Part shown: piece by piece, positions 13,164 through 32,963 of the stretch
Position numbering within the stretch: the first letter of the stretch is position 1
Layout: each line of letters starts with the position of its first letter
Sequence record: OP557969.1
Reading direction: 5' to 3' (one strand)
DNA from: Escherichia phage ph0011
DNA: 64,000 nt
The notes under the pieces: generated by a model
What the model was told of the DNA's origin: nothing
The model's database searches: none
Seen by the model: only the letters and a program-made list of their open reading frames with translations
Made by a program: the position numbers and the translations under genes

Positions 13164-16100
13164 TTACTTAACTATTAATATTTTTTGAATATCATTACCA
13201 CGAACTCGTAGACTGTTAGTATACACAGAAAGGTCTATTGTATAACTATTTTGAGTATAACGTTTAAACTTATCATAACCGCCCAAATTAATTCCGTTGA
13301 AAGAATATGTAGTATCATGTTTGAAATCGTGTTCTGCACTGTACATTACTCCACGGAGTAAGTTGTTTGTATTTCTAACTTCAACTTTTTCATATCCAAT
13401 CGATATAATGTCACTCTTGTTAGCAGCGGAGCCTGATAACACATTATTTCTAACATTATAATGGCTTACGGAAAGAGGTTGTGCTACATAAGTTGTGTTT
13501 TCTTCACTAATGGTTGTTATGTTAGTGATGGTAGCGTCAGCCACATCAATATACATACTATCAACCATTGGATATTCATACACCCACACACCTTCATTAT
13601 TTTTTGTCGGTTTGATATCTTTCGCATCATATTCAATCACGTTAATTTCTAAACAATCCGGCATTTTAGTTCTTACTAATTCACTAAGAACACCTTCCCC
13701 TGTAATTGGTAGATTATAACCGTTGTCTATAGTAATACCATCATCATTAAATATTTCATTTGATACAACCCAAACATCAACATCATCAGGTGTTACTCCG
13801 TCATTATACTTACCACCATTTAAAGTAGTATCATAAAAAACGTCATAATTAATCACATCAATGGTGTAATTTCTGTTTTGCTCATATAATTTAATATCAC
13901 CCTTGGTAAATTCTGGGTCAGCAAATGTTCTAACACGAACAATGTTCAATGCAAGATGTTGTACTGGCTGATTCAGTTGTCCAAGTGTGATGTTATCATA
14001 TCGAAGAACATTACCAGAACTATCAACCAACTCAATCGTTTCTTTTCCTGTAGTTCTTACAGTGAATAGAATAGGAGTTGTATTATGTTTGATATTAGAC
14101 ACACGTAATATGGTTTCCCATGTACGATTTTGATATCGAATAAAATCTTCACCATCCGGTGTGAAAATCATCACCTTATCACCATCAGATAAGTCACTGT
14201 CAACGATTTCAGCCTCAGTTAAGCTATTAATAGAACGTACACGATAGAAATATTTTTCTTCAAACGGTGATGCCGTTTTATTAATATCATGTTCAATCTT
14301 AGCATATGAAGGAATACTAACAATTGCTTCTGTATGTTTATATGGGTTGATAATTGCCATACCCTCGGTTTTATATCTGCTATTATTACGCAATTGCACT
14401 AGTGATTCAGTATCAAATCCATAACCATCAACAGTGAATCTAATATGCCCAACTGCACGACTAGCTGGATTTATTTCAGATATATCGATAATATAAGGAT
14501 CAACTTCATCATCTTTAACTTCCCATTTGATAGCTGAAGTTTGTGATTCTAATGCAAGGTTGTCAAATGCATTCATATCATTGAAGAACTTAGCTTCAGC
14601 AATACTATCAATTATATATTGATAATCCGAATACATAGGGTTATTTTGATCTTGTGGTAAATCATCTAGATTTATTTCAGCAAGTTTAATCATTTCACCA
14701 TTAGTAATGAAATAATCTTCCATGAAATCATCAATACTTTTATCATCTGGTATACTTTGGTATTCACCATTGATATTTAAGTAGACATGTTTTCTTGGCA
14801 TCATAGTAATAGCATAGATATCAATAGGTGTTTTTGAAAGAATTTCTTCTGCTTTTTCATACATATCAGCAGAGTCTTTATCAAACAACCCTCTCATGGC
14901 TGCCAGTACATGGACCGCATCGGAATAGAAACGTGTATCACCACCAATTTCATCATAACGATAAACATATACACCGTATTCAACTTCAAGTTTCACTTTA
15001 ATATCATGTTCAGATGCATCTGGATATTTTTCTGTAATAAAAGAAATATATTTTTCATATAATTCTTTACTTATTTCAAAATATCCATAGTTATAATCAT
15101 TACTTGAAGAAAAACCTAATGGTAGTCTAGTACTTGGGTTATCATTATAAACCAAACCACTAAATCCACAGCCAACCTCATCATGAATCTTATCATCACT
15201 GATATCTTTATAAAGTTTCAAACGGTTTGCTAATGTATTGTACTGAACATAGTGTCGAAGGTCAGTAAACATTTCATTATGCGTTGATTCGTTATAAATG
15301 CGTTCAAGTGTAGCAGTAAATTCATCAGTTGCTTCTAAATCATCAGCATGTTCTTTATACCACTGGTTTACACCATTTGCAGTTCCTAGTGTTACATCTA
15401 ATTCTGGATAGTACGTTTGTAATAGATACGCATTAACCAAGTCAAATGATTGTTCATTATACACAGGGTAAGAATATATATAACGTTGTAATTCATAGGT
15501 ATTAACAGAATCTTTTTCATTTGATTGATACTTATTATTAACACTAATCAACTCATTAATGTTTGCCAAATCTTTATTCGGTTTACATTGAATATTATCA
15601 TAATGCATAATAATATCAATTTCTTGAAATCTTCTATTTGGTGCAATAAAATCACTAGGCAGAGAACCTACTTTCTCCCATTTTTTAGTGGTTTCATTAT
15701 ATTGAGCGTACTCATAATCCCAAATATCCTTTTCAGTTTTAACCCACGAACCATCAACAAAAATATACCCATTAGGATCTAAATCATTACAAAGACCTTT
15801 GATTAAGTCATCATCAGACGTTTTTTGTTCTATCTGTGAACGGATTTTTGTACGATATGGTTTCACCTCTTCAAAGTACTCAACAATTTGGTTAATCAAA
15901 TTATCATTTGAATAGTTTTGTACCAAAGATTGTTCCAAACCAACAATATAGATATAGGATGTTTTAAATACCCAATCAACAACACCCTGTTCTACGTGTA
16001 CATATTTGACCATATCAAAAACAATTTCACTTTGGTGTAAATCGAAAGAATTTTTTAGCAAAGCAAGTGCTTTTCTAATATTAATTTCACGATTACTAAG

Positions 16101-19100
16101 TGAACCGTCCTCATTATGAACATTATAATCTACATAAAACAAATCGTTAAGCTCAATAGTACTACGTTGTCGCCCAATAGCTTTCCAATAAATTGAATCA
16201 CGTGATTGAGATTTGATATATAAAGTCCAAATGTTTTCACTATCTGTGACTCTAATTATATCACCAACTTGATAGTTTTTAGCATTTGCTTCTTCTAAAC
16301 TTATCTCTTGGATGTAAGCAGTTTTGCTATCATACCCAACATCATACCAATCTGCATAAGACCAGTATTGAGTCATATCTAATGATGTTCCGAGTGATTC
16401 AACATAATCCGATTGCTTAATCATTTTATGTTGTCCTTCACCTTTATTTTCTAAAGTTATAGTAACAACACTACCTGCATTAGCTGGACTATTCATTAAC
16501 TGAATATATCCGTTTTCATCGAAGTGAATAAAATAAACAGCACTAGTTGATAATGGAGTCGGTAGATAACCGCTAGAACTTAAAATAACAGCGTCATTTT
16601 CTTTAAATTTATCCTTTTCAACTGCAATTACAAGTTCATTATTATAAGTTAATACACGGAACGAAACCTCATTAGGGTTAACTTCTGTAGTTTTAACATT
16701 AAACACATCTTCCATAACAACACTATTAGTAGTTATGTTTTGTGATCTATAATAATTATTTGCACTTTCTACAAAGTTTCTACGTGCCTCTATTATATTC
16801 TGGAACCAAGTTTTATTAGAGCCTAAACCAGTGTCAACTTCTGGATATAATAAATCTACAACCTTACCTGACTTCGTAGTTTCTTGACCAATTAGAGAGT
16901 TCCACATAGAGTCCCAAATTAGTGGGTTAAAGTTGTAACTTTCACCCTCTTTGCAAAGTTGATATTGGTCATGTTTAACAACTTCTGTATTGTCCATATA
17001 GTAAGAAATAGTCAAAACACTAGTATCATCATTAACTTCAAACTGCATATTACTAAGAATAAAAGAGTTTTCATTAATTGGTGCGAACCAAGGAATGTTC
17101 AACTGTGATGGATCTTTAATAATACGTGCAATGTCAGTACATGATTTTGTTCTGGTATGAATAGGTGGTACATAAATTGTATCACGTACCCAGAAATAGT
17201 ATTTTGTTACATAACTGTCAGTGGAGCTATCATATTCCAAAAATGTACTATAATTATCTTCAAGTGCTGTTCCACTTGGAAGATACATATTATTATTTTT
17301 GTTTTTCTTAGCAACATCTTTACAGTACTTATCCCAGTTATATGGTTCTACTGGTGAACAAACCCATTCCAACACATCAATAGTACTATGTGGCAACAAA
17401 CGACCCCAGTTGTAACGTTTATATTCATTGGTTGCGTCAATATCAACATTTCCATCTGCATCATAAATGGCACGAGTATAATCCAAATAAAAAGCGGTGC
17501 TAGTGTTCCACCATACTTGACCAACTTTTTCAGCACCCCACGCCTGAACCAATTCGCCATTGCTATTATATTGAGCAGGGTCGATTGGTGAAGTATATGT
17601 TACGTTTTGCATTGCTGCACCAGGAATAACACCATTAATTGGGTCATAAACATTTAGATATAATGCAGTAATGTTTGTACGTTCATCATATGTAGTTGGA
17701 CGTTCAAACAAAGTACTTTGTGGTGCTTTAAAACTATATTTTTTATCAATATATGCTTGACGCTCTTCAGTACTCACAAAACGCGAAACATAACGATACA
17801 AACGAGGGCGTGTATCTGGGTCAGTAAATTCGATATTAATTGAAGTATCAAATGGAACCACCATAACTTTGGAATCATCCCCAGCAGTATAATATTGACT
17901 TTCTACTGTTAAAGTATCTGGCATAAAGTTAGTTTCGTCCACAAAATAATAGTAATCACCATCTTCAAGAGGGATATCATCAGATAGAGTTACTTTACAG
18001 AATTTCTCAGCGTAAACATCTGTGGTTTCGATTGGTGTAATAGAAACCATTTTAACATTAGTGTCAATTAATTCAAAAATGTTCCATAACCCATTTCCAT
18101 CTTTGAACATCCATACTGATTCAGGATTTTCACCTTTACCATTGATATACAACATACGGTCATTGAATGCAGTACTGAAATCTTTCGTAGTATAAGATAC
18201 TTCATCTAATGTAACTGGACCAATATCAGGCAGTTGGATGTGTTCACTTCTACCACTACGCATTGGGAAAGAGAATTTACCATTTGGACGAGTAATCCAT
18301 TGTGGGTCTTTTCCTTGTTCACCAAAGAATACAATATTGTTTCCATTACCATTTGATGTTGCATTTTCATCAAAAGACATCATTTGTGGCTGCTGCTTAA
18401 ATTGGTCATTAATCAATTTAAATTGAAGGTTTTTCTTTCCATCGATGTTACCATATGTACCAACTTTAAACGCCCATTCTTGTAATGCTTTATATTCATC
18501 AGTATCATAGGATTTAGAAACACGAAGAACACGTTCTAAAACTTGGTTTGTACCTTTGTCATGAATAAATCCTTTATAGAAATCAACACGACTTACATCA
18601 CTACTAATCATACGTTGTAGATAATCACGAGATTGATAACCAATCAAATGGCTAGACAATTCTTGTAATTGTACATCGCTAACGGGATGTTCATTGTCAT
18701 AGTAATGTTGAAAATCTGTTACTAGAGTTTCAAATGATGGTATTGTACCAGATTCCAAAATAATAAAACCAGGTGCTTGTAATCTACCAGTCCATGAACC
18801 AGTAATGTACCCATACATTTTAATTAGTTCCTGGATAGAACCATAAGTTGGTTGATAGATATAATCACCAAAAATAGTCTTATCATCAAATATAACAGCA
18901 TGTTCATATGAACACAAACTTAAGCGGATTAATGCAATACGCTTATTAGAATCGGTTGTTCTAACAGTGAATATATTACCAATACGTGAAGTTTCGATTT
19001 CATATTGACGAATACCTTGGTTATTATCATCAAGCAATGACCACACACCACCATTATTTTGTGTAATAGACTGTACTGAACCAAAATCCGAACCAAACTT

Positions 19101-22100
19101 AGCATTTGCAGCACTTGGTGTACAAGAGATAAATTCGCCAGTTACCAGAGGACTCTGACTCCATATCACAAAATCTTTAGCAATAGTGTGCCAATCTTGC
19201 TGAATACCATCTTGATTAACATCTTCGAAAATCCAGCCATGTTCTTTAAGATACTCACCATATCCACAAATAAAAGTGTATACTTCTTGATAACTATTGA
19301 AAATAGTCCCATATTCAATAGAAGCCTCAGACTTCCATTCATTATAATGAACAATATTACGGTTTTCCAATTTAAGAGTTACTTTTCTTCCATTTTTTAC
19401 TGGAAGTTTATATTTAAATTTCGCACCAACCAAATCATATCCATCAATTTGATATGCACTACCATTCCATGTAATTTTGATGGCACTCATCTGTTCATCG
19501 CGAATGTTATTCGAACGCACCAGACCAATCGTTTGGTTTTCTTGTGAAATAAGACCAAATGATTTAGCGTTGAATGTTAATTGATCTGCTTTAGTAAAGC
19601 CACCAATTTTATGTCCCACATTTACGTAAGACGAACGTACAACATCTCCATATTTTGTAGTAATATTTTTATTTTGATACATCAAATAATCACTAACAAA
19701 CATTTGATATCCAATTGTTCTTGTGTTATCTTCACCATGAACAGTTGTGTTTTTATCAAAATTCACACGATTGCGGGTATCCCCGTACAGAAATTGTTCA
19801 CCAGTGGTGATAATTTCTTTCAAATTGTCATTACGGGTATCCCAATAATAGTTGGCAAATTGTGCAGGTTTAGCTTTATACAAAAGTAACATTTGGTCAT
19901 ATGCAAACAATGTGGTGTTCATATACGTAAATTCCATATCACCCATGTCGCCATACGCCCAAGGTTCTGCTCGGTGAACTAAAGATCCAGACACTAATCC
20001 TAAAACTTCAGGAGCAATATACTCAACCACACAAATATCTACACCGGATGATGTTTTATTTCCAGTTTTAGTAATTTTAAATGGTTGTACACCAAATCTT
20101 TTATATTTGTCATACTGACCACGGCGGTCGCCATATAAAATTGTCCCAGTACTACTATCGCCGATTGTATCATTTACATCCCAAAGTCCACTAGGAACCA
20201 AATCACCTTGTTCATCAGTTACAAGTGCCTCATATACATAAACTACATCACCATCACGTTCACCAACTTGGACAGCGGTTGGTTCATACTCTTGGTTCCA
20301 CCAAGTAGGACGTTGTGTAAACCCAAACATTTCCCATGGATGTGTAGCAGGGCGATATGTACCATATTGATCAGTATAGATTGCACGCCATGAACCACGA
20401 GCAGGAATTTCAGTACTTTTACCATCAACAACATAATAGGTTCCAGTATAGTTCCATGTTCTCCAGTTATTAGGATCATAATCATGTGTACTATTACTAA
20501 TACCATTAGATGCAGTGAAGTTAATATAACCACGTAATAGAAGTGTTTGTTTTTCTTCTGCACTATATTCAGTTTTTGTAAAATATGGTGTAGGGAAAAG
20601 ATCATCACTATTCAATACAGGGACATAATCAACATCTTTGAATTTATTGTCAATACTATTGAAAATTCTATTTTCAAGTTCATATACAACATCATCCATT
20701 TTATCAACACCATTGATAACACGGTATGCTTTAGAAATAATACCAGTATGGCTGATATTATAATAGCTAGGTTTACTACCAGCAGTTAGGAATGTTGCTT
20801 TCTCAGGAACGTATGCTTGTAGAATACCTAAAAACTGTGGAGTTGGTGGTATAAATGCACGAATAAGACCAGATGTACTACCCACATTGTCATAATAGAA
20901 TGGGAATGAACTATCACGACCCATATTAATAGTTGCCAAAATAGAATCAACGATGTTAGCTGCACTATTTTGTAAAAAGTTAGTTGGGTTTTCATTGTAC
21001 ATTCTAAGCATTTGTGTATTAAATTTATTAATGAATCTGAAATATTCAGATTGCATAAACATAGTTGCTTCAAATAAATCAATATCTTCATTTGCAGTAT
21101 GAGCCATCAATGGGAGCATAGAAGCTTCATTTTGAATAATTTTAGTTCCTACTCCATTATTCACTAATCCCTTAGCTAAACGTTCTTCATAATCGTTGAA
21201 GTCATCAGCATAACCACTAGTGATATTCTGTTGAATAATATCCTGAAAATGAAGAGTATAGTCTCCTTGATTAATATATATAATATTGGAGTTATATGGG
21301 TTATTTTGTAAGTTAATTGGAACTTCATATGCACCTAATTCTTTATCAGGTGTTACAGTACTGCTATAAGTTCTAATTTGAATAACAGAATCATCATCCA
21401 ATTCAACACTGTTATCGATTGTGATACTTTGCACTTGACCTTTTAATACATTCTTGGTATATTTGGAGATATTAACACCATCAACAACAACTTCAATAAT
21501 ATCAGAGTCATTGTCTAAAACTTTTTGTGCCAATTCAAAAGTATGGTCATATTTTAAAACCTGAATACCATCACCACTAATTTGATGCCAGTCCAAATAT
21601 GTTTCACGTTCAGCTTTATAGTACTGATATGTTTTATCAACTTCGATGACATATGCATACATACCCTCGACTGGTTCTTTAAACAGTTCCATATCATAAA
21701 CAGAACTAAAGACTCGATACATATCAGTACGTTTGACTTGAGGTGTCTGTTTTACAAATTGTTTAGAGAATTCTTTTGAACGCACCCAATCAGTTTGAAG
21801 ATTCATTTTATTATTTTCATCAATGATGTTATAATAATACAAACCACCGATTTCAACTTCAACACCAAGATGGTCATATGTATAACGTTGTGATTGTAAA
21901 AAGTTTTCATAAGTGTAATAGTTATAATCACCAAGTTCAATGTTATACCCATATACACTATCAGCCGCGTAGTTATAGTTGATTTTAAATCCAAATAATG
22001 GTGAACCTTTAAATGTACTGGATGGGTACGTGGTGCTGTTATCTAGTTTGATTCCATTACGATCATAAAGTTGGAATTGAGGAAAGACGTTAACACTTGG

Positions 22101-23165
22101 CTTCGCCTGTGCACGAACCCATAATGTTCCATTCCAATACATAGAATTATTGCCGTACTCATTTCCTTTTGTGACCAAAACTACGTCACCATTTTGTGGT
22201 TCACCACTTGGACGGGACTCAGTTTCTTCATTTGGATCTAGTGCTAAGCCATAAACGCGTGTACCATCTTGCATTTTTTTAACATACACTTTATAAATTC
22301 TATTGTTTTCACCATCATTACCAATACTGGTGAATAGAATACGCATACCATCTTGTGGAATAATACCATCAATGCGAATACCGCTATTGACATCTTTTTG
22401 AATAATATCTTCAGGTTTGATACTATCAGAAAAAAGTTCAACTGTTCCACGGAATTTTGTACCGTAGTTAATTAGCTCGATATTTTTATTATATTCGATA
22501 ATTGGTGCACGAGCACGAATAAAACGAGAATCTTGCATTAGCTCTTCAGTCAAGATAGAACCGTCTTCTAGTGTTTCACCTAAAGTATACCAAAAGTTTT
22601 GCAAAGACCATGTATTACCATTAAGTGCTCCACGTTCCATTACAATGTAATCAGGTGTAATGATATTATAAGAGTTTTTGGTATCCCAAAGATACGAACT
22701 AAAATTGTTCATTTTATTTGGGTTAATTGCAGGAGTCCATGCATAAAACTTACCGTTAAATAAACGACTTTCATTATCGGTTAGTGCTCCGTAATGACTC
22801 ATGTATCCAACAAGATCATCATAAAATTGAATTGAACGAATTGTTGAATCATCATTTTTAGAGACATAAGCAGTGGACAACTGATATAGTTGACGTGCAA
22901 CAGAACTTTCATGCAAGAAGATATTACCAGCGGCAGCCGGAGAACCCATGTCACCAATATAACCGTCAACCAATTCGTTTTCAGCCGGATTAAACCATTG
23001 TTGAATAACATCATCACTGACTTTTTGAATATCTTCTAAGCCTTGCATCCACTCAGGCAATCTTTTGATAAAAAGCTTTTTCTGTACTGCTTCAGCCATC
23101 TGTGTAGGTTGAAACTTAAAATTATTAGTCATTTTTTCTGGACTCCATATAATTCGTTCATTCAT
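13164..23165 (-). CDS. Giant virion structural protein (3,333 aa), likely fused baseplate-wedge/fiber protein
   Basis: Uninterrupted 10-kb ORF with ATG 23163-23165; Y/N/D/T-rich; sits in the slot between gp6-like and neck genes where T4 has gp7-gp12/wac; own terminators on both sides. Confidence 0.6.
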   Translation of the reverse strand: MNERIIWSPEKMTNNFKFQPTQMAEAVQKKLFIKRLPEWMQGLEDIQKVSDDVIQQWFNPAENELVDGYIGDMGSPAAAGNIFLHESSVARQLYQLSTAYVSKNDDSTIRSIQFYDDLVGYMSHYGALTDNESRLFNGKFYAWTPAINPNKMNNFSSYLWDTKNSYNIITPDYIVMERGALNGNTWSLQNFWYTLGETLEDGSILTEELMQDSRFIRARAPIIEYNKNIELINYGTKFRGTVELFSDSIKPEDIIQKDVNSGIRIDGIIPQDGMRILFTSIGNDGENNRIYKVYVKKMQDGTRVYGLALDPNEETESRPSGEPQNGDVVLVTKGNEYGNNSMYWNGTLWVRAQAKPSVNVFPQFQLYDRNGIKLDNSTTYPSSTFKGSPLFGFKINYNYAADSVYGYNIELGDYNYYTYENFLQSQRYTYDHLGVEVEIGGLYYYNIIDENNKMNLQTDWVRSKEFSKQFVKQTPQVKRTDMYRVFSSVYDMELFKEPVEGMYAYVIEVDKTYQYYKAERETYLDWHQISGDGIQVLKYDHTFELAQKVLDNDSDIIEVVVDGVNISKYTKNVLKGQVQSITIDNSVELDDDSVIQIRTYSSTVTPDKELGAYEVPINLQNNPYNSNIIYINQGDYTLHFQDIIQQNITSGYADDFNDYEERLAKGLVNNGVGTKIIQNEASMLPLMAHTANEDIDLFEATMFMQSEYFRFINKFNTQMLRMYNENPTNFLQNSAANIVDSILATINMGRDSSFPFYYDNVGSTSGLIRAFIPPTPQFLGILQAYVPEKATFLTAGSKPSYYNISHTGIISKAYRVINGVDKMDDVVYELENRIFNSIDNKFKDVDYVPVLNSDDLFPTPYFTKTEYSAEEKQTLLLRGYINFTASNGISNSTHDYDPNNWRTWNYTGTYYVVDGKSTEIPARGSWRAIYTDQYGTYRPATHPWEMFGFTQRPTWWNQEYEPTAVQVGERDGDVVYVYEALVTDEQGDLVPSGLWDVNDTIGDSSTGTILYGDRRGQYDKYKRFGVQPFKITKTGNKTSSGVDICVVEYIAPEVLGLVSGSLVHRAEPWAYGDMGDMEFTYMNTTLFAYDQMLLLYKAKPAQFANYYWDTRNDNLKEIITTGEQFLYGDTRNRVNFDKNTTVHGEDNTRTIGYQMFVSDYLMYQNKNITTKYGDVVRSSYVNVGHKIGGFTKADQLTFNAKSFGLISQENQTIGLVRSNNIRDEQMSAIKITWNGSAYQIDGYDLVGAKFKYKLPVKNGRKVTLKLENRNIVHYNEWKSEASIEYGTIFNSYQEVYTFICGYGEYLKEHGWIFEDVNQDGIQQDWHTIAKDFVIWSQSPLVTGEFISCTPSAANAKFGSDFGSVQSITQNNGGVWSLLDDNNQGIRQYEIETSRIGNIFTVRTTDSNKRIALIRLSLCSYEHAVIFDDKTIFGDYIYQPTYGSIQELIKMYGYITGSWTGRLQAPGFIILESGTIPSFETLVTDFQHYYDNEHPVSDVQLQELSSHLIGYQSRDYLQRMISSDVSRVDFYKGFIHDKGTNQVLERVLRVSKSYDTDEYKALQEWAFKVGTYGNIDGKKNLQFKLINDQFKQQPQMMSFDENATSNGNGNNIVFFGEQGKDPQWITRPNGKFSFPMRSGRSEHIQLPDIGPVTLDEVSYTTKDFSTAFNDRMLYINGKGENPESVWMFKDGNGLWNIFELIDTNVKMVSITPIETTDVYAEKFCKVTLSDDIPLEDGDYYYFVDETNFMPDTLTVESQYYTAGDDSKVMVVPFDTSINIEFTDPDTRPRLYRYVSRFVSTEERQAYIDKKYSFKAPQSTLFERPTTYDERTNITALYLNVYDPINGVIPGAAMQNVTYTSPIDPAQYNSNGELVQAWGAEKVGQVWWNTSTAFYLDYTRAIYDADGNVDIDATNEYKRYNWGRLLPHSTIDVLEWVCSPVEPYNWDKYCKDVAKKNKNNNMYLPSGTALEDNYSTFLEYDSSTDSYVTKYYFWVRDTIYVPPIHTRTKSCTDIARIIKDPSQLNIPWFAPINENSFILSNMQFEVNDDTSVLTISYYMDNTEVVKHDQYQLCKEGESYNFNPLIWDSMWNSLIGQETTKSGKVVDLLYPEVDTGLGSNKTWFQNIIEARRNFVESANNYYRSQNITTNSVVMEDVFNVKTTEVNPNEVSFRVLTYNNELVIAVEKDKFKENDAVILSSSGYLPTPLSTSAVYFIHFDENGYIQLMNSPANAGSVVTITLENKGEGQHKMIKQSDYVESLGTSLDMTQYWSYADWYDVGYDSKTAYIQEISLEEANAKNYQVGDIIRVTDSENIWTLYIKSQSRDSIYWKAIGRQRSTIELNDLFYVDYNVHNEDGSLSNREINIRKALALLKNSFDLHQSEIVFDMVKYVHVEQGVVDWVFKTSYIYIVGLEQSLVQNYSNDNLINQIVEYFEEVKPYRTKIRSQIEQKTSDDDLIKGLCNDLDPNGYIFVDGSWVKTEKDIWDYEYAQYNETTKKWEKVGSLPSDFIAPNRRFQEIDIIMHYDNIQCKPNKDLANINELISVNNKYQSNEKDSVNTYELQRYIYSYPVYNEQSFDLVNAYLLQTYYPELDVTLGTANGVNQWYKEHADDLEATDEFTATLERIYNESTHNEMFTDLRHYVQYNTLANRLKLYKDISDDKIHDEVGCGFSGLVYNDNPSTRLPLGFSSSNDYNYGYFEISKELYEKYISFITEKYPDASEHDIKVKLEVEYGVYVYRYDEIGGDTRFYSDAVHVLAAMRGLFDKDSADMYEKAEEILSKTPIDIYAITMMPRKHVYLNINGEYQSIPDDKSIDDFMEDYFITNGEMIKLAEINLDDLPQDQNNPMYSDYQYIIDSIAEAKFFNDMNAFDNLALESQTSAIKWEVKDDEVDPYIIDISEINPASRAVGHIRFTVDGYGFDTESLVQLRNNSRYKTEGMAIINPYKHTEAIVSIPSYAKIEHDINKTASPFEEKYFYRVRSINSLTEAEIVDSDLSDGDKVMIFTPDGEDFIRYQNRTWETILRVSNIKHNTTPILFTVRTTGKETIELVDSSGNVLRYDNITLGQLNQPVQHLALNIVRVRTFADPEFTKGDIKLYEQNRNYTIDVINYDVFYDTTLNGGKYNDGVTPDDVDVWVVSNEIFNDDGITIDNGYNLPITGEGVLSELVRTKMPDCLEINVIEYDAKDIKPTKNNEGVWVYEYPMVDSMYIDVADATITNITTISEENTTYVAQPLSVSHYNVRNNVLSGSAANKSDIISIGYEKVEVRNTNNLLRGVMYSAEHDFKHDTTYSFNGINLGGYDKFKRYTQNSYTIDLSVYTNSLRVRGNDIQKILIVK

Positions 23166-26743: not shown

Positions 26744-26773
26744 AAAGAAAAGCACCCCGAAGAGTGCTTTTTT
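26744..26773. terminator. Intrinsic terminator hairpin downstream of gp25-like gene
   Basis: Stem AAGCAC/GTGCTT with loop CCCGAAGA, A-run and T-run on either side. Confidence 0.6.
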
Positions 26774-26778
26774 AATAT

Positions 26779-27174
26779 CTACAAAGACGATACTGAATAT
26801 GTTGCCATTCTATTATTACTTCTTGCATCAAATACAATAGAAAGTTCCTCTACAGTATTCAATACTACATAATGCAATACTATGTTCATTTGATATCCAT
26901 ATTCTATCCTTGAAATTTGTATTTTTTTAAGATTCAAACGTGGATCTAAAGAAATAATCCTTCTGGCATCTGCTTCCAAAAGGTTCATAGTATTATAACC
27001 TTCCAATTCAAACAACAAATCCCATGCAATAAAACCATAGTCTGCATCAAATGCCCTTTCGCCTTTTTTTGTATTGAAATGGTTCATTAAATCCTGACGA
27101 ACCAGTTCAGTATCGTACAATGTTTCCGTTCTACCCACAACTGGTGTGGAGAAACCTTTAAAAACAACTGCCAT
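26779..27174 (-). CDS. gp25: Baseplate wedge protein, gp25/GPW family (131 aa)
   Basis: KGERAFDADYGFIAWDLLFELEG matches the gp25 pattern G.R.FDP.FG..L.D.LFE; size typical; RBS AAGGA. Confidence 0.7.
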   Translation of the reverse strand: MAVVFKGFSTPVVGRTETLYDTELVRQDLMNHFNTKKGERAFDADYGFIAWDLLFELEGYNTMNLLEADARRIISLDPRLNLKKIQISRIEYGYQMNIVLHYVVLNTVEELSIVFDARSNNRMATYSVSSL

Positions 27175-27187
27175 TGTCTATTTCCTT

Positions 27188-27676
27188 TTATACGGATTCG
27201 ACGATTCGTGCCATCTTTTCCGCTCTAGAAGTGGTTTGTTTATACCAGGTACTATCACGCAATTCTTTACCAGCAGTTTTATAATCAGCATTACCCAATG
27301 CGGTCATTGCTTTTTTAAATTTCAAAACTTTGGCTTTGCCCATTTGGAACACCATCATCCACAAAACACGCTGTACTTGTACTGGTGCAGTCATGCCAAA
27401 TTGCTCATAAATTGATTTTGCGTCATTGTACGCGGCCTGAGCATCTTTAATAAGAAGTTGTTCAGCTTGTTCTTCAGTTAAGCCATTTTTGAAGTTTTCA
27501 CCAGGAAGAACTAAATGACCATAACCAATAGTATCAAGTCCCAAGCTATCTTTATATACCCAAAACTTATCATTTTTAAAATAACCAAGTTTTTTCTGAT
27601 AAGCAATAGTTCCTTCAAATTCTTTGATTTCATTAAAAAATTGCTCATCTGTATTTTTAATTTCCCATTTACTCAT
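27188..27676 (-). CDS. T4-type lysozyme (GH24), free-standing, probable endolysin (162 aa)
   Basis: Catalytic-triad context EFEG...KDSLG...DTIGYGH, plus MVFQMG and W..QT..RA blocks typical of T4 lysozyme; RBS AAGGA. Confidence 0.85.
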   Translation of the reverse strand: MSKWEIKNTDEQFFNEIKEFEGTIAYQKKLGYFKNDKFWVYKDSLGLDTIGYGHLVLPGENFKNGLTEEQAEQLLIKDAQAAYNDAKSIYEQFGMTAPVQVQRVLWMMVFQMGKAKVLKFKKAMTALGNADYKTAGKELRDSTWYKQTTSRAEKMARIVESV

Positions 27677-27692
27677 AAAGACATCCTTATAT

Positions 27693-27700
27693 TATTTATA
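27693..27700 (-). promoter_or_regulatory. T4-late-promoter-like TATAAATA (minus strand) upstream of lysozyme gene
   Basis: Exact TATAAATA on minus strand, 17 nt upstream of the lysozyme ATG; gp55 homolog encoded in window. Confidence 0.35.
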
Positions 27701-27712
27701 GTACTAAAATAT

Positions 27713-30376
27713 TTATTGACATGCCTCTAAACGACGAGCCATTAATTCAGCACGGCGTGTTGTTTGACGATACCAAGCCGAATTTCGTATTTGAGCAGCA
27801 GCTTGTTTATAGTTTCCTTTGGCTAATTCAGACAACATGGTCTTAAATTTAAGGACACCCCCTTTACCCATCTGGAATACCATTTGACATAGAACTTGTT
27901 GTGCCATGTAAGGAGTTTTCATGTTATATGATGCATAAATTGCCTTAGCATCATAAATTGCTTTACTACTGTCTCTAACAAGCATATCATTGGCTTCTTG
28001 TTCAGTTATACCTGACGAAAAGTTCTCACCGCTAACAATTAAGTGACCGTATCCAATAGTAGGGAATCCACGACTATCTAAGTAACGCCAGAATTTACCA
28101 TTACGGTAATATCCTTTTGCTTGTTGATATTGTATTGTACCCTCATATTCTTTTAATTCCGAAATAAACTGAGCATCACCTGGGACGATTTTCCAATCTA
28201 TTGCTGTTTTATCTACGTTACCAACATTATATGTAGGTTGTTCAACTGGCGTTGATGATACACTTCTACGTTGTGTTCTTCTTTTGCGTGGTACATGTCG
28301 TGAACCACGCTGAGAATAACCAGTCCCAATTGTTTTAATTTTAGTAGTTACTACTAATTCATCACTATCTACTGACGGTTGCACAACTGCTTGCGGTGAC
28401 GATTGATTAGTTGCTTTTCCAGCAATCAAAGTTTTATTAGCTGCATCTGCTCCAATTCCAGTTTGTGATGCATAGAACAATCCCGGATCAACTGAACCAC
28501 TAAACCCAAGTACATTTGCAGACGTTACACGTATTTCAAATTGAATAACACCTTTAGCTTTACCTATAACTTGTCCTTTTTGAACAACATCTTTATTCAA
28601 TAAATCAGTTTGAATATTATAAAATATAGATTTATATCCAGATTTGTGTTGTATTAAAATACCACCATTAGTGATTGCAACAACACCACCATCTGGTGCA
28701 ACAACATCACCTTTGCATTGTATTTCCCATCCAGAACGATCTGCTTTTCCACCGTTTTGTGTTGGAATACCTTTCCCCCAGTAACCATATTGGCGAATTG
28801 TCCCACTACATGGCATATACATATGTAAACCTTCATATGTGATACTATATCCAGTCATTCCAGCATCAGATACCATCAAATCTTGTGTTTGTACTTGTTC
28901 TGTTTCAGGTGTATAGTTAATAAACTGTATAGCTTCAGTTTCTTGAGCTTCTGGAATTTCTGGCGTAACATCATTAGCAGGTTGTGGCTGTACTGGTGAT
29001 TCACTTGAAATCTTCCCACCGCCTTGTCTCGGTGGTTCAACAGTGCTACCATGTTTTTCTGCATTAACCCAAGCAGAAATGTCATGAATGTGTTCATTTA
29101 GACCCGTAGATGGTGTTTTAAAGTTAGGAGCAGTAAATTCAGCAGTCCCGCTGTTTCCTCCACTGTTAACAGTCAATGTTTGACCACCACCGCTAATTAT
29201 TGCTGATGATGAACCAATTAAATTTGCGGAAGTAGAAGCAGATATAGATGCATTTGAACCTGCGGTAATATCAGTACTACTACCACTTTGCATACGCAAT
29301 GATGCAGCAGTAACTAATCGGAGATCTGCACCAGAATTAACAACAACCTGACCACCAACTTTTGCATCAAGTGCACCAATTAAATCCAACTTAGTATTTG
29401 CACCAACACGTGCATTGAAATCTTGACCAGATTCAATATTATATGAACGACCAGCAATCATATTAATATCCTGACCAGCACGAATATTGATATTCTTATC
29501 ACAATGCATATCAATATCACCTTCACCTGTAAATTTTATGCGTGCTGTTCCGTCACGGTTAATTAACAGAACGTCGCCTGTTGCTTCTGACAGTAATAGC
29601 TGTGCACCACTGCGAGTTTTTATAACAACTCCTTCATTTTTACGGGAACCAACACGTGTATCGTTTACTGGGTTATTAAATTGTGTATCCTGATAACCAT
29701 CTGGATCTTGATCCCATGTAGGTGCGGTTAATTCCTCTTCAGTATATCCATCATCGATAATAAAACTATTTCCACGTGGTGACGACATACCATATACAGT
29801 ACTGGTTGTCTGGCGGGTGCTACTGCGATTAGCAAGACCTGCTTCTTCATCATATAAAAGGTTTTGTTTTTTCAAACCAGCAATGATTGGAACGTTTGCA
29901 TACTTATCTTGCATGTCTGTTGTGATTGTGTTACGATCATAATCAGTAACAGGGATAGGCATATCCGTTCCGCTATAACTACTAACTTCAGTTGCCATGC
30001 CTGGAACCATAGTATTCATGCGATGGTCATATACACAACCAATCCAATATGCCTGAAATGTACGTGCCTGTGCGAAAATCACAATAACAGTGCACCCAAC
30101 ATCAGGCGGTACAGCCCAGAATCCATAGCCTTTGGGATATTGACCATATGCATCGGCACTTGGAATACCTGGTGTTTTGCCAGCAAATGGTGACATATAT
30201 GATGCTTCAATCCATGATTCTTTGGAATTTTTATCACTTTGTGAACCTTGTATCCAAACTTTCAATTTTCCTGATTTAGTTGGATCTCTATTATCCATAA
30301 CCGTTGCTAACTGTGGGTAAGATGGGTCAAAACGACCCAACTGTTGTTGTGCATACTTTTTACTTGTATCTGCCAT
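27713..30376 (-). CDS. gp5: Baseplate central spike (gp5-like) with degenerate M23-like domain and C-terminal GH24 lysozyme domain (887 aa)
   Basis: N-terminal OB-like region, G/S/N-rich beta-helix repeats, M23-shaped block GWEIQCKGDVVAPDGGVVA...QFEIRV lacking the His ligands, and C-terminal lysozyme domain (EYEG...LDSRG...PTIGYGH...MVFQMG) ~55% identical to the adjacent free lysozyme. Confidence 0.8.
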   Translation of the reverse strand: MADTSKKYAQQQLGRFDPSYPQLATVMDNRDPTKSGKLKVWIQGSQSDKNSKESWIEASYMSPFAGKTPGIPSADAYGQYPKGYGFWAVPPDVGCTVIVIFAQARTFQAYWIGCVYDHRMNTMVPGMATEVSSYSGTDMPIPVTDYDRNTITTDMQDKYANVPIIAGLKKQNLLYDEEAGLANRSSTRQTTSTVYGMSSPRGNSFIIDDGYTEEELTAPTWDQDPDGYQDTQFNNPVNDTRVGSRKNEGVVIKTRSGAQLLLSEATGDVLLINRDGTARIKFTGEGDIDMHCDKNINIRAGQDINMIAGRSYNIESGQDFNARVGANTKLDLIGALDAKVGGQVVVNSGADLRLVTAASLRMQSGSSTDITAGSNASISASTSANLIGSSSAIISGGGQTLTVNSGGNSGTAEFTAPNFKTPSTGLNEHIHDISAWVNAEKHGSTVEPPRQGGGKISSESPVQPQPANDVTPEIPEAQETEAIQFINYTPETEQVQTQDLMVSDAGMTGYSITYEGLHMYMPCSGTIRQYGYWGKGIPTQNGGKADRSGWEIQCKGDVVAPDGGVVAITNGGILIQHKSGYKSIFYNIQTDLLNKDVVQKGQVIGKAKGVIQFEIRVTSANVLGFSGSVDPGLFYASQTGIGADAANKTLIAGKATNQSSPQAVVQPSVDSDELVVTTKIKTIGTGYSQRGSRHVPRKRRTQRRSVSSTPVEQPTYNVGNVDKTAIDWKIVPGDAQFISELKEYEGTIQYQQAKGYYRNGKFWRYLDSRGFPTIGYGHLIVSGENFSSGITEQEANDMLVRDSSKAIYDAKAIYASYNMKTPYMAQQVLCQMVFQMGKGGVLKFKTMLSELAKGNYKQAAAQIRNSAWYRQTTRRAELMARRLEACQ

Positions 30377-30386
30377 ATTTTATTCC

Positions 30387-32636
30387 TTAATCAACTATAC
30401 TATCTTGACGTTTAAGTGCACGGATTACAATTGCAGCTTGAATTTGTTGTGTGAAAGAACCACCTGCCCCAAAGTCATGTACAATTTTATTAACACGATA
30501 AATGGTTTGATTAAACGTAGTTGGTGTATTAATATCCAATACACCCGTGTTATCATTAATTGATACTACTGGTTGTAATTTAAGTAAAAGGTATGCTTCC
30601 GATGTTATATAGTTTGCTACATGATAATCATCTGGATTAATTTCCATATCTTCCCCATTAATTACTTGCTCTAGATATTGTAAGTACGAATAATCACTCC
30701 ATCCAAGCCAATATGGGTCACCAACAACTCGCATATCAAGTTTACACAAAAAAGGTCTATTATAATAGTTGTCACGTATTTTACGTCTATCCATTTCATA
30801 TGTACTACTGTTATCGTTTAATGAAGCAGATAGTGTGGTTTCGTTGTTAGTTGCTTCAGTTGGCATAGTGAATATTTGACCATATCGATGACCAACGCCG
30901 TCAGTACCTTCATCAGTTTCTTCATATGTGGAGACATAATCTTCAATATATTGTGGTAATACATTTACTTGATAATTATTATAACGATCCTGCTCTTCTG
31001 CATTTCCAACCTGCATTTGGTTTTTAGCTAATGTGTCAATATCATTTAATAAATCTTGCTGATCTTTGGTTAGCATACCACCCATATCACGTGTAACACG
31101 CAAATCGCTTGTTTTCGCCCATGCATCTGGTATACTATTATATTGTACACCTTGTATATTCAATTCTTGTGAGTTATGTGTACCTGAATGGTTTGCTACG
31201 TCTTGTATTGGACCAGGGTTGCGAGTAGTAGCTACAAAAAATTGCTGGTCAAATTTCAAATCCAAATCAAGTATCTCACTATTAAGTCCACTAAACTGAT
31301 AATTATAAGTTTTCATGTTTATTTTAGGTTTTTGATCAATAGGATCTACGTATTTTTCTGCGTTCTCAAAAAAGTACTCAAATGTGAAATTTTCTGGTTT
31401 CAAGTCAGATTCATGTACAATGTCACCTATTTTAAATTTAACTATGTAAAAAATTACTTTATAAACAGATGTATTACGATAATTATCAAAACCTATATAT
31501 TGTTTTATTGGTATAATATTAACAAATTGTCTTACACTAGTACTCTCATCCGCTTGTACAGTACAAGTGTCGATAACATCATCAATAATTCTTGATATTG
31601 GTGTGCTTGGGTTCCATGAAAAGTTTTTAGAACCTTGTGTTCCACTTTTAGTCGTTCCTGCTTCTGCCATTTGTTTTGAATCATAGTTGATAAAAAGATC
31701 TTGTAAATCAGGAGCTACTTTAAATTCAAAAAATTTACCATCGGATAATTCACCAAATTTATATCTTAGATAGCCATATTGTTGATCTGCCATTTGATTT
31801 AATTTATCTTCTAAATCAAAACAGAAATCACCAAAGTTTTCAGCCGTACAGTTAAATGGTTCTTTTAATGTCCATTCCATGTTGTCAACTAATGCTGCTC
31901 TATTATGAACTAAACTCATAGTATATAGCATAGTACTACCACTTTGTGATGCACTTGCTGTAATACTATTAATTTTTACAGACCATCTTCTCGTGGTTTC
32001 TGGTATAATCTCAGGTATTCCATTCTTATTAAAACCAACAAACTTTAACTCTAAGATTAAAGGTAAGTCCATGAATTTATGAAATCTAAGTTTGTTACTT
32101 AAAGATACTAATTCGTCATATAGACTCATACTGTTATTCTCAGACATATTAAGAACTGCGGTATTAAAACAATAATTCGTTGTCATTCCTGGTGTGGATG
32201 GTCCTGCTTGTGTCATTTGAACACTTGTTATATTATATTTTCCACTAACGCCACTTTCTGATATAACATAGCGTTGTACCTCTGCATCAGGGTAAAGCCA
32301 AAAGTTTTTGAAATCATCTTTATCTAAAGCAAACAGACAAAAATGCCAAGTTGGGTTGTCATATTTTAATAACTTATTCTCATATGGTATTACAAACTGA
32401 CTTAAATCCAAATCTTCATAAACTTGGTCCATTCCGGCACTTTGTGATGGTAATGACTCAACATTACTAACGTTTGCTTTATAATTATTTTTCGTGATAG
32501 TTTTTACATCATTTTGTAATGTATTGGCGGTGGCTTTCAAATTATCAAGTGAATTATTTGCAGTTGTTTTTGTCTTACCAGTGATATTTGAAATATCATT
32601 TTGAAAATTATCAACTGTACTTCGTAAATCTGCCAT
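30387..32636 (-). CDS. Hypothetical baseplate/hub-associated structural protein (749 aa)
   Basis: ATG 32634-32636 with RBS GGAG; position between gp53-like and gp5-like genes. Confidence 0.4.
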   Translation of the reverse strand: MADLRSTVDNFQNDISNITGKTKTTANNSLDNLKATANTLQNDVKTITKNNYKANVSNVESLPSQSAGMDQVYEDLDLSQFVIPYENKLLKYDNPTWHFCLFALDKDDFKNFWLYPDAEVQRYVISESGVSGKYNITSVQMTQAGPSTPGMTTNYCFNTAVLNMSENNSMSLYDELVSLSNKLRFHKFMDLPLILELKFVGFNKNGIPEIIPETTRRWSVKINSITASASQSGSTMLYTMSLVHNRAALVDNMEWTLKEPFNCTAENFGDFCFDLEDKLNQMADQQYGYLRYKFGELSDGKFFEFKVAPDLQDLFINYDSKQMAEAGTTKSGTQGSKNFSWNPSTPISRIIDDVIDTCTVQADESTSVRQFVNIIPIKQYIGFDNYRNTSVYKVIFYIVKFKIGDIVHESDLKPENFTFEYFFENAEKYVDPIDQKPKINMKTYNYQFSGLNSEILDLDLKFDQQFFVATTRNPGPIQDVANHSGTHNSQELNIQGVQYNSIPDAWAKTSDLRVTRDMGGMLTKDQQDLLNDIDTLAKNQMQVGNAEEQDRYNNYQVNVLPQYIEDYVSTYEETDEGTDGVGHRYGQIFTMPTEATNNETTLSASLNDNSSTYEMDRRKIRDNYYNRPFLCKLDMRVVGDPYWLGWSDYSYLQYLEQVINGEDMEINPDDYHVANYITSEAYLLLKLQPVVSINDNTGVLDINTPTTFNQTIYRVNKIVHDFGAGGSFTQQIQAAIVIRALKRQDSIVD

Positions 32637-32648
32637 GTGTTACTCCAT

Positions 32649-32963
32649 TTAGCCTATATTTCGAGTACCATTAAGATAGTTTTGTACTCTTTGATTTGCT
32701 GGTATTCTAATTGTTACCCCACTTTTAAAATTATATATTGGGTCTTCTCCTAATATGTCTGGATTTAATAATGCAAAGATATAATATAATCGTTCATTTC
32801 CGTACATTTCGTATGCCAAACGCCATGGTTGGTATTCATATTTCAATGGTATCTCATAAAAATCATCAGTATCAGCCGGAATGATATCACGTGGTAAATT
32901 ATACCCAAGATACCATGTTTGTTTCACCTTAGCATAAGGTGAGTATTGACTATAGTTGGACAT
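32649..32963 (-). CDS. Baseplate wedge protein, gp53-like with LysM-like fold (104 aa)
   Basis: RLAYEMYGNERLYYIFALLNPD resembles the T4 gp53 segment ELANAIYGNPQLYWVLLMCN (from memory); RBS GGAGG; 1-nt overlap with upstream gene. Confidence 0.45.
   Translation of the reverse strand: MSNYSQYSPYAKVKQTWYLGYNLPRDIIPADTDDFYEIPLKYEYQPWRLAYEMYGNERLYYIFALLNPDILGEDPIYNFKSGVTIRIPANQRVQNYLNGTRNIG

Follow-up and report, generated by a model that had tools for sequence, protein, structure and literature searches.

A central tail spike with a degenerate LytM domain and a C-terminal lysozyme, and its free lysozyme paralog, in the RaK2-like jumbo phage ph0011

Background

Escherichia phage ph0011 (sequence record OP557969.1) encodes a central tail spike protein that ends in a GH24 lysozyme domain and, as the next gene, a free lysozyme of the same family. 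Both lie on a stretch of 64,000 nucleotides (nt), which is called the window throughout. Orthologous pairs are RaK2 gp078/gp073, CBB_240/CBB_239, 121Q gp587/gp586, and UE-S1 ORF535/ORF534. They have the same gene order, the same lengths (886-902 and 162 amino acids, aa), and the same domain order, and there is no architectural difference to the pair of ph0011. For RaK2 three lysozymes were reported (ORF029, ORF073, and ORF078), and the 886-aa gp078 was counted among the largest baseplate lysozymes and described as having a "very unusual domain composition", namely a β-helix flanked by unmatched regions and a C-terminal lysozyme (PMC3622015, 2013). In phage CBB, CBB_238 was described as gp25-like, CBB_239 as a free T4-type lysozyme, and CBB_240 as a protein with an oligonucleotide/oligosaccharide-binding (OB) fold and a C-terminal lysozyme, and a possible central M23 domain was mentioned "in other Rak2-like phages" (E 6.5e-4). 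CBB_238 and CBB_240 were confirmed as virion proteins by mass spectrometry whereas CBB_239 was not, and CBB_187, with a transmembrane, a LysM-like, and a lysozyme part, was predicted to be the endolysin (PMC5259590, 2017). In phAPEC6 the 95.9-kDa spike was also found in virions by mass spectrometry, while the table of detected proteins jumps from gp241 to gp244 and the free lysozyme is undetected. The 162-aa enzyme of UE-S1, LysUE1, has been cloned and purified and lysed E. coli treated with ethylenediaminetetraacetic acid (PMC12805682, 2025). Because the gene pair, the C-terminal lysozyme, the weak M23 match, and the muralysis by the free enzyme have been published, the core of the finding is known. 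The two genes are orthologs of published gene pairs, and the points added here are refinements and not a new kind of system.

A similar arrangement is found in T4, where gp5 is likewise an OB-fold/β-helix spike with a GH24 domain and a free GH24 paralog is encoded by gene e at another place of the genome. The two T4 domains are 45% identical, compared to 52% here, and have the same catalytic Glu/Asp/Thr. However, the lysozyme domain of T4 gp5 is located between the OB fold and the helix, whereas in ph0011 it is found at the C-terminus, about 300 residues beyond the helix. In addition, T4 gp5 contains neither a LytM domain nor an HxH motif and is capped by the PAAR protein gp5.4 (P2 Apex preprint). 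The spikes of the P2 gpV and phi92 type consist of an OB fold and a β-helix with the HxH as the only invariant feature of its region, as is the case here. The HxH in the C-terminal part of such spikes marks the iron-binding Apex domain, and the same histidine cage serves as a trimer clamp in fibers and tailspikes (P2 Apex preprint).

The domain succession of ph0011 is also known from the evolved VgrGs of type VI secretion systems (Vibrio cholerae VgrG3/VgrG3cp, V. fluvialis TssI2, and Pseudomonas aeruginosa VgrG2b), in which an OB fold, a β-helix, and a linker are followed by a C-terminal, peptidoglycan-targeting enzyme with its site of action in the periplasm of the target cell. The effector domains of VgrG3cp and TssI2 are pesticin-like and thus have the fold of T4 lysozyme. 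Compared to these, the ph0011 spike is without the gp27-like N-terminal half, and its helix is followed by an additional HxH and, before the enzyme, by a degenerate LytM domain. It is a virion protein and not a secreted toxin, and there is no immunity gene.

For the LytM part, precedents exist on two sides. Tail-tip virion proteins that use an M23 domain for passing the cell wall, like the spike might do, are phi29 gp13, in which the M23 domain is joined with a lysozyme-like domain, and Tal2009 of Tuc2009. The M23 domains of both are, however, active endopeptidases with intact H(x)nD and HxH motifs, and belong to phages with non-contractile tails and Gram-positive hosts. Degenerate LytM factors, on the other side, are known as EnvC, NlpD, ActS, DipM, SpoIIQ, and PrgK, none of which is a phage virion protein and which are only 13-23% identical to the LytM domain of the spike. 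Of these, EnvC, NlpD, and ActS activate amidases in E. coli, SpoIIQ docks SpoIIIAH in Bacillus, and DipM coordinates autolysins in Caulobacter (M23 review). Mostly, degenerate LytM folds act via protein-protein contacts or by regulating partner hydrolases, and less often by plain binding of peptidoglycan. The closest precedent is PrgK of the pCF10 type IV secretion system, whose metal-free LytM domain down-regulates a muramidase in the same polypeptide.

Results

The spike protein up to its HxH motif

The region 27188-30376 of the window is occupied by two open reading frames (ORFs) of 887 and 162 aa on the minus strand, with 36 nt between them, which sit within a run of baseplate genes on the same strand (Table 1). 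As judged from its OB fold, its β-helix, the baseplate-hub module around its gene, and the presence of orthologs in virions, the larger protein is a gp5/VgrG-type central spike of a contractile tail. It shares 93.8% of its amino acids with the ortholog of phage SHEFM2K. The Phage_base_V match covers aa 23-116 (E 9.3e-7, 29.6 bits, gathering score 23.8), and in a profile of aa 1-456 built from ten phages (profile A2) aa 19-117 align to residues 364-449 of the VgrG spike chain 9jg8. The acidic insert that follows the OB fold (aa 118-250) takes the position of the lysozyme domain in T4 gp5 and belongs to the most conserved parts of the spike. It has no match to any family or PDB entry, and its AlphaFold confidence (predicted local distance difference test, pLDDT) is below 40.

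The β-helix is supported by a DUF2345 match at aa 280-326 (31.3 bits against a Pfam gathering score of 30.7), and by the alignment of aa 286-412 of profile A2 to residues 494-629/643 of P. aeruginosa VgrG1 (4mtk, E 1e-3). The same part of the profile also matches other VgrGs and the T4-like central spike 9f4a, in agreement with the initial annotation, which had proposed a gp5-like spike. The match to 4uhv (E 4.8e-6) was set aside as partly artefactual. There, the HxH region of the spike is aligned to the His-tag of the construct, which inflates this best E-value; the entry without tag gives E 1e-3. The triple-stranded β-helix is read from the sequence only, and a model of the monomer is unable to reveal the trimeric helix. 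The full-length AlphaFold model has a mean pLDDT of 48.5 and is reliable only at aa ~531-620 and 721-887, and no conclusions were drawn from it on the OB fold, the insert, the helix, the linkers, or the packing of the domains.

Just past the β-helix, the histidines of the HxH (H429 and H431) are invariant in 16/16 spikes, although the flanking region belongs to the least conserved ones. By analogy to the P2-type spikes the motif probably forms an inter-chain histidine cage, in which six histidines of the trimer might coordinate an iron octahedrally. In gpV the HxH (H197/H199) is 12 residues away from the C-terminus at residue 211 (P2 Apex preprint). In contrast, 456 residues follow in the ph0011 spike, and the motif is therefore not close to the C-terminus as in an Apex tip.

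The degenerate LytM domain and its linkers

Beyond the HxH and an acidic linker, the spike contains a block (aa 511-640) with the β-fold of the M23/LytM domains. The Pfam family PF01551 scores 18.0 bits with the full-length protein and 23.6 bits with the block alone, both below the gathering score of 28.7, and it matches 12/12 relatives with a best E of 8e-7. The initial annotation had already suspected an M23-shaped block with replaced metal ligands, and the profile match together with the active-site columns, which were read from HMMER alignments, bears this out. The first zinc motif, H(x)nD, is replaced by R547 and E551. The relatives contain R, S, or N at the former position, with H in two of them, and E, I, or T at the latter, mostly I or T. 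The general-base His of the YxHL motif is N587 in the spike of ph0011, and V610-I611-Q612 stands in place of the second zinc motif HxH, with the conserved F613-E614 after it. His is absent from the YxHL column and from both HxH columns in all 16 spike sequences.

The spacing of the first motif varies among the M23 enzymes (M23 review), and we therefore searched the block for alternative conserved histidines. H577 is its sole invariant His, and the upstream H518 is not conserved. Given that ligand and catalytic histidines are absent across all 16 spikes, the domain is considered a degenerate LytM domain that is ancestral to the family. It corresponds to the definition of degenerate LytM domains in the M23 review, according to which the M23 fold is kept while the catalytic residues and/or the zinc are lost. 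As far as can be told from these residues, the domain cannot be a metallopeptidase, and the earlier suggestion of a binding-only module seems a reasonable one. The domain evolves under purifying selection, with ratios of nonsynonymous to synonymous substitution rates (dN/dS) of 0.02-0.25 in nine pairwise comparisons, which shows only that it is functional.

Only eight true relatives of the LytM block were found when 1.84 billion representative proteins were searched exhaustively with HMMER. Because each of them is a spike (872-984 aa) in which the block occupies the same place, this LytM subfamily appears to be restricted to jumbo-phage spikes. The alignments were built from the results of this search and from 13 related loci of the phage collection. 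A homolog search with aa 440-727 of the spike gave one partial match, in a database that contains almost no relatives. A single-sequence AlphaFold model of aa 500-727 reached a pLDDT of 34 and was not used.

Between the LytM and the GH24 domain a motif, IGxGYxQRGSxHxP, is conserved at aa 683-696 (28289..28330, minus strand). Marine relatives contain a related motif, [IL]xSx[FL]PxSGxxxxP, at this position. The basic linker that follows (aa 697-722) is hypervariable, with an isoelectric point (pI) of 11.6 and a conservation of 0.27. The conserved motif could constitute a cleavage or a docking site.

Two paralogous GH24 lysozymes

The spike ends with a GH24 domain, and PF00959 is matched with 44.8 bits by the spike and with 37.4 bits by the free protein, against a gathering score of 22.3. 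Both have the two-lobed fold of T4 lysozyme, and among the PDB sequences both match the lysozyme domain of T4 gp5 and T4 lysozyme with E-values of 1e-9 to 1e-11. The last 159 residues of the spike align to residues 4-162 of the free protein without gaps and with 52% identity (BLASTP, E 4e-58). Therefore, the paralogy of the two lysozymes is real, and the identity of about 55% that had been estimated for this neighbouring gene in the initial annotation was close. The further claims made there, that the domain is C-terminal and not internal as in T4 gp5 and that the catalytic residues are kept in both copies, hold as well, since the domain lies past the β-helix and the alignment with T4 lysozyme (E11, D20, and T26) assigns E745, D767, and T773 to the spike and E21, D43, and T49 to the free enzyme. 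Compared to T4 lysozyme, the GH24 domains here contain a 13-residue insertion between the Glu and the Asp, and about 20 residues are missing.

The catalytic Glu and Asp are invariant in 27/27 phage GH24 sequences, and Glu, Asp, and Thr are kept in every free copy. Some of the fused GH24 domains may have an altered or lost activity. The active site is under strong purifying selection (dN/dS 0.02-0.16). A dN/dS value of 1.66 for the free gene in the pair of window and RaK2 was disregarded because it results from a one-codon offset in the ungapped pairing. As a separate observation, a metagenomic spike (P0009) has G, R, and V at the Glu, Asp, and Thr columns.

The free lysozyme is 95% identical to LysUE1 of UE-S1 and to the 121Q ortholog. 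It has no signal sequence. Its gene is tightly packed into the baseplate operon with its own AAGGA ribosome-binding site, and within the window there are no lysis genes nearby. Only two GH24 genes were found in the window, and a signal-anchored e-like paralog is not among them. An exact copy of the T4 late-promoter consensus TATAAATA is located at 27693..27700 on the minus strand, 17 nt upstream of the start codon of the free lysozyme. As a dedicated late promoter of this gene it was rejected, because TATAAATA is not enriched in the window (six found compared to about ten expected) and is conserved at this spot only in the closest relatives.

Relatives and evolutionary history

The synteny was compared across the 13 related loci. 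In all enterobacterial and Xanthomonas relatives the 162-aa gene is found between the spike and the gp25-like gene (12/12 carriers), and the carriers include Asteriusvirus, Alcyoneusvirus, Mimasvirus, Eneladusvirus, and others. The arrangement is thus conserved across several jumbo-phage genera and recorded in the literature, which is beyond what the initial annotation could know. In RaK2, the spike and the free lysozyme are separated by four inserted small ORFs (locus L003, 7522..9015). In 121Q, an HNH endonuclease gene lies between the gp25-like and the wedge genes (locus L002, 6353..7117).

Two relatives are without the free gene. Vibrio phage 2.275.O encodes a full cargo-bearing spike while the free lysozyme is absent (locus L005, 3334..6670). 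Its spike gene directly follows the gp53-like gene, without the large gene of the 749-aa type. The PA5oct-like Pseudomonas phage Callisto, a more remote relative, has the same gene order and a spike of 477 aa with neither LytM/lysozyme cargo nor a free lysozyme (locus L016, 3914..5347). The Callisto spike contains a single His (IHM instead of HxH) and ends about 60 residues later.

In a neighbour-joining tree of the lysozymes with 200 bootstrap replicates, the fused, free, and e-like GH24 domains of the RaK2-like phages form one clade separate from the T4 pair (200/200). Since each pair is in a clade of its own, the duplications in T4 and in the RaK2-like phages were independent. The fused domain of the Vibrio phage branches ahead of the split into free and fused domains. 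RaK2 gp506 (L018, 2704..3606), which carries the annotation gene e, represents a third paralog. Its N-terminal signal-anchor is followed by a LysM-like segment and a GH24 domain, and its gene is found close to nudE, as is gene e in T4. It is 33-42% identical to the fused and the free GH24 domains and shares the insertion between Glu and Asp. In the tree, the free copy is placed beside the fused ones (bootstrap 0.56) and not beside gp506 (0.015), and an origin of the free gene from the e-like paralog was therefore rejected. From these sequences, the simplest history would be that a short spike acquired the cargo within the RaK2-like lineage, and the free gene appears to have arisen later as a stand-alone duplicate of the C-terminal domain of the spike. 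The boundary of the duplication is exactly at the first conserved Trp of the domain, W728 in the spike and W4 in the free protein.

The source phage and the baseplate-hub module

The two-gene stretch of ph0011 is 87-89% identical at the nucleotide level to the Escherichia phages UE-S1, 121Q, PBECO4, phAPEC6, and others, which have genomes of about 350 kb, and a further 25 kb of the window are 89-91% identical to the same Asteriusvirus genomes. Because of this identity, the window is placed as coming from an Asteriusvirus-like jumbo myophage of the 121Q/RaK2-type ("RaK2-like") group. The usual species boundary for phages is 95% nucleotide identity. With 88-91% identity to the nearest Asteriusvirus genomes the phage is below this line, and the synonymous divergence (dS) in the spike and the free lysozyme genes is 0.4-0.9 against these genomes. 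By these comparisons the phage probably represents a species that is absent from the 2025 phage collection.

The order of the genes in the module is gp53-like, 749-aa hub protein, spike, free lysozyme, gp25-like, and gp6-like wedge (1153 aa). The 749-aa protein directly upstream of the spike has no match in Pfam, NCBIfam, or the PDB, and an identity as gp27-like protein could not be demonstrated. Its ortholog in phAPEC6, gp240, was detected in virions. The terminator-like hairpin after the gp25-like gene suggests that the genes from gp53-like to gp25-like constitute one transcription unit. Directly downstream of the gp6-like wedge gene there is a single ORF of 3333 aa (13164..23165, minus strand), whose size fits the 382-kDa virion protein gp245 of the phAPEC6 proteome.

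Table 1. Features of the spike and lysozyme locus in the window, in the direction of transcription.
Feature	Coordinates	Strand	Basis
gp53-like baseplate wedge gene	32649..32963	-	Pfam Phage_gp53, E 8.7e-5, exceeds gathering score
749-aa virion structural protein gene, directly upstream of the spike	30387..32636	-	phrog_11190
Central spike gene, 887 aa, 96 kDa	27713..30376	-	ORF; Pfam domains; full-length PHROG match
OB-fold domain, gp5/VgrG type, aa 19-117	30026..30322	-	Pfam Phage_base_V
Acidic insert, aa 118-250 (133 aa)	29627..30025	-	Conservation profile
Triple-stranded β-helix region, aa ~251-420	29117..29626	-	DUF2345 and profile alignment
HxH (H429-I430-H431) just past the β-helix, candidate inter-chain histidine cage	29084..29092	-	Conservation
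Acidic Pro/Glu/Gln-rich linker, aa 446-510, pI 4.05	28847..29041	-	Composition, low conservation; pLDDT <35
Degenerate LytM/M23 domain without zinc ligands, aa 511-640	28457..28846	-	Alignments
Post-LytM segment, aa 641-727	28196..28456	-	Alignments, conservation and charge profile
C-terminal GH24 (T4-type) lysozyme domain of the spike, aa 728-887	27716..28195	-	Pfam PF00959
Free GH24 lysozyme gene, 162 aa, 18.7 kDa, pI 8.9	27188..27676	-	ORF; Pfam; BLASTP; PDB matches
gp25-like baseplate gene, last of the apparent hub operon	26779..27174	-	Pfam GPW_gp25, E 5.6e-9
Terminator-like hairpin 3' of the gp25-like gene	26748..26771	-	10-bp stem followed by T-run; consensus match only

Discussion

A cargo-bearing spike and a probable duplicate with a proposed role at lysis

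Taking everything together, we favour, with some reservation, the explanation that the spike is a trimer carrying a dead LytM domain and a GH24 domain with intact catalytic residues as C-terminal cargo, and that the free gene is a duplicate acting at lysis. The OB fold would seat the spike under the tail tube, and the needle formed by the β-helix would end at the invariant HxH. From the far end of the needle would hang the acidic flexible linker, the degenerate LytM domain, the basic linker, and the intact GH24 domain. Contraction of the sheath would then carry three tethered LytM-GH24 arms across the outer membrane into the periplasm, where the GH24 domains would cut the glycan strands and open the cell wall for the tube. 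The LytM domain would be a non-catalytic partner of the lysozyme, which either holds it on the peptidoglycan or restrains it until delivery. Because degenerate LytM factors act by protein contacts, and given the precedent of PrgK, targeting or gating of the neighbouring lysozyme is the most economical reading of this domain. The free enzyme, as a soluble cytoplasmic muramidase, would be made late together with the baseplate-hub genes and act from within at lysis, auxiliary to a signal-anchored e-like endolysin encoded elsewhere. This picture is built on the sequences analysed here for the identity of each domain, its key residues, conservation, selection, and the order of the genes, and on the literature on orthologs for the presence of the spike in virions and the muralysis by the free enzyme. 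From these we infer the histidine cage, how the cargo is arranged, and what the LytM domain and, in vivo, the free enzyme do.

Several observations weigh against this explanation. The separate signal-anchored LysM-GH24 protein, which is gene e near nudE in RaK2 and for which an endolysin function is predicted in the CBB paper, means that the free enzyme may not be needed for lysis. The idea that the free gene encodes the endolysin of the phage is weakened by this protein but not rejected. The activity of LysUE1 was seen at a high enzyme concentration of 2.65 mg/ml (PMC12805682). The absence of the free enzyme from the virion proteomes, which would agree with a function at lysis, is a weak negative given its size of 18.7 kDa and a possibly low copy number, and the virion proteomics of RaK2 missed even the spike (PMC3622015). 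On the side of the spike, the Thr column contains Asp or Ser in three fused orthologs (Munch, Hallingskeid, and XaC1; loci L010, L013, and L007), and the fused enzyme may be less than fully active in some phages. The model of the LytM domain has a moderate confidence with pLDDT values of 61-80 and is derived from an alignment of eight sequences, and the clades of free and fused lysozymes are only moderately supported (0.61 and 0.67). Lastly, the place of the cargo with respect to the tip is a prediction, and the cargo may be cleaved off during assembly.

Alternative explanations

The free lysozyme could instead be a low-copy component of the virion or baseplate that docks onto the spike or the hub in trans, for example near the OB/helix junction, and is injected together with the spike. 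In favour of this, its gene is found inside the baseplate-hub operon beside the gp25-like gene in each of the 12 carriers from several genera, even in RaK2 despite the insertions there. In addition, a separate e-like candidate for the lysis role exists elsewhere in the genomes, and the conserved insert of the spike, at the position of the T4 lysozyme domain, might provide a docking site. However, the free enzyme was undetected in the virions of CBB and phAPEC6 although the spike with its three copies was found, and neither the Vibrio nor the PA5oct-like relative has a free lysozyme in its version of the module. T4 gene e is also found among virion genes, so that being encoded among structural genes is no proof of a structural role. 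We therefore regard a virion-borne free lysozyme as unlikely.

A further idea concerns the LytM domain, which might switch on host amidases in the manner of EnvC and NlpD or gate the GH24 domain in cis in the manner of PrgK, so that the spike would be the phage counterpart of an evolved VgrG. By analogy to these systems this is conceivable, and we would give it little weight at present. If true, the virion would contain a regulatory module that is delivered to the periplasm, which has not been described for phage entry, and the free paralog could then be the same enzyme, split off and free of regulation. The part of this idea in which the LytM domain mimics EnvC, NlpD, or ActS and activates the host amidases AmiA, AmiB, and AmiC, so that the wall is opened with their help as well as by the muramidase of the phage, is improbable when considered by itself. 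Such a hijacking of amidases is less likely than targeting or gating of the neighbouring lysozyme, and more interesting.

Equally hard to defend is the possibility that the part beyond the HxH is an aid to assembly, which is removed from the mature spike at the motif at aa 683-696 or in the linker that follows the HxH, so that the released LytM-GH24 part would be a soluble lysis enzyme. T4 gp5 is cleaved during assembly, and the succession of a conserved motif and a hypervariable basic linker would fit such a cleavage. A sharp tip is hard to square with three appendages of 450 aa, and the peptide coverage of the spike is low (9.9% in phAPEC6 and 4.1% in CBB) with the positions of the peptides not reported. 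But a part needed only for assembly would not require an intact GH24 site under purifying selection, with a free copy next door, and the evolved VgrGs demonstrate that a spike can mechanically bear cargo at its C-terminus. Also, phAPEC6 lists the spike at its full 95.9 kDa, though this figure is calculated and not measured.

That the M23-like block is still a peptidase using unusual ligands such as E551, H577, E614, and D630 is very hard to believe. It is true that E614, H577, and D630 do not vary, that with E551 the spike of ph0011 has a conservative substitution for the ligand Asp, and that the CBB paper, without inspection of the active-site residues, named only a possible M23 domain from a weak Pfam match (E 6.48e-4; PMC5259590), yet H577 corresponds to H71 of LasA, a scaffold His that is not a ligand, E614 is the ordinary Glu after the HxH in the HLHFE motif, D630 is part of a structural VDPG turn that is also present in zoocin A, position 551 varies as described above, and known M23 folds that lack the HxH histidines and the general-base His are inactive.

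Conclusions

Beyond the published record, we found no published statement that all members of the family have a degenerate M23 domain, that an invariant HxH past the β-helix is followed by a cargo of about 456 residues beyond the usual end of a spike, that PA5oct-like relatives have a short, cargo-free spike, or that the free gene, as it appears from a tree of moderate support, arose by duplication of the C-terminal domain of the spike. For the annotation of these phages this means that the central "M23 peptidase" should be renamed to a degenerate, non-catalytic LytM domain, and that the protein is a cargo-bearing central spike and not a look-alike of T4 gp5. The arrangement raises the questions of how the sharp tip of a contractile tail can be reconciled with three appendages of 450 residues past the HxH clamp, what purpose a dead LytM domain has in a virion, and why three GH24 paralogs, a spike-fused, a free, and a signal-anchored one, are kept. 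LysUE1 is under study as an antibacterial, and its apparent origin from an entry enzyme together with the possible targeting or regulatory domain of its fused twin could inform the engineering of such enzymes.

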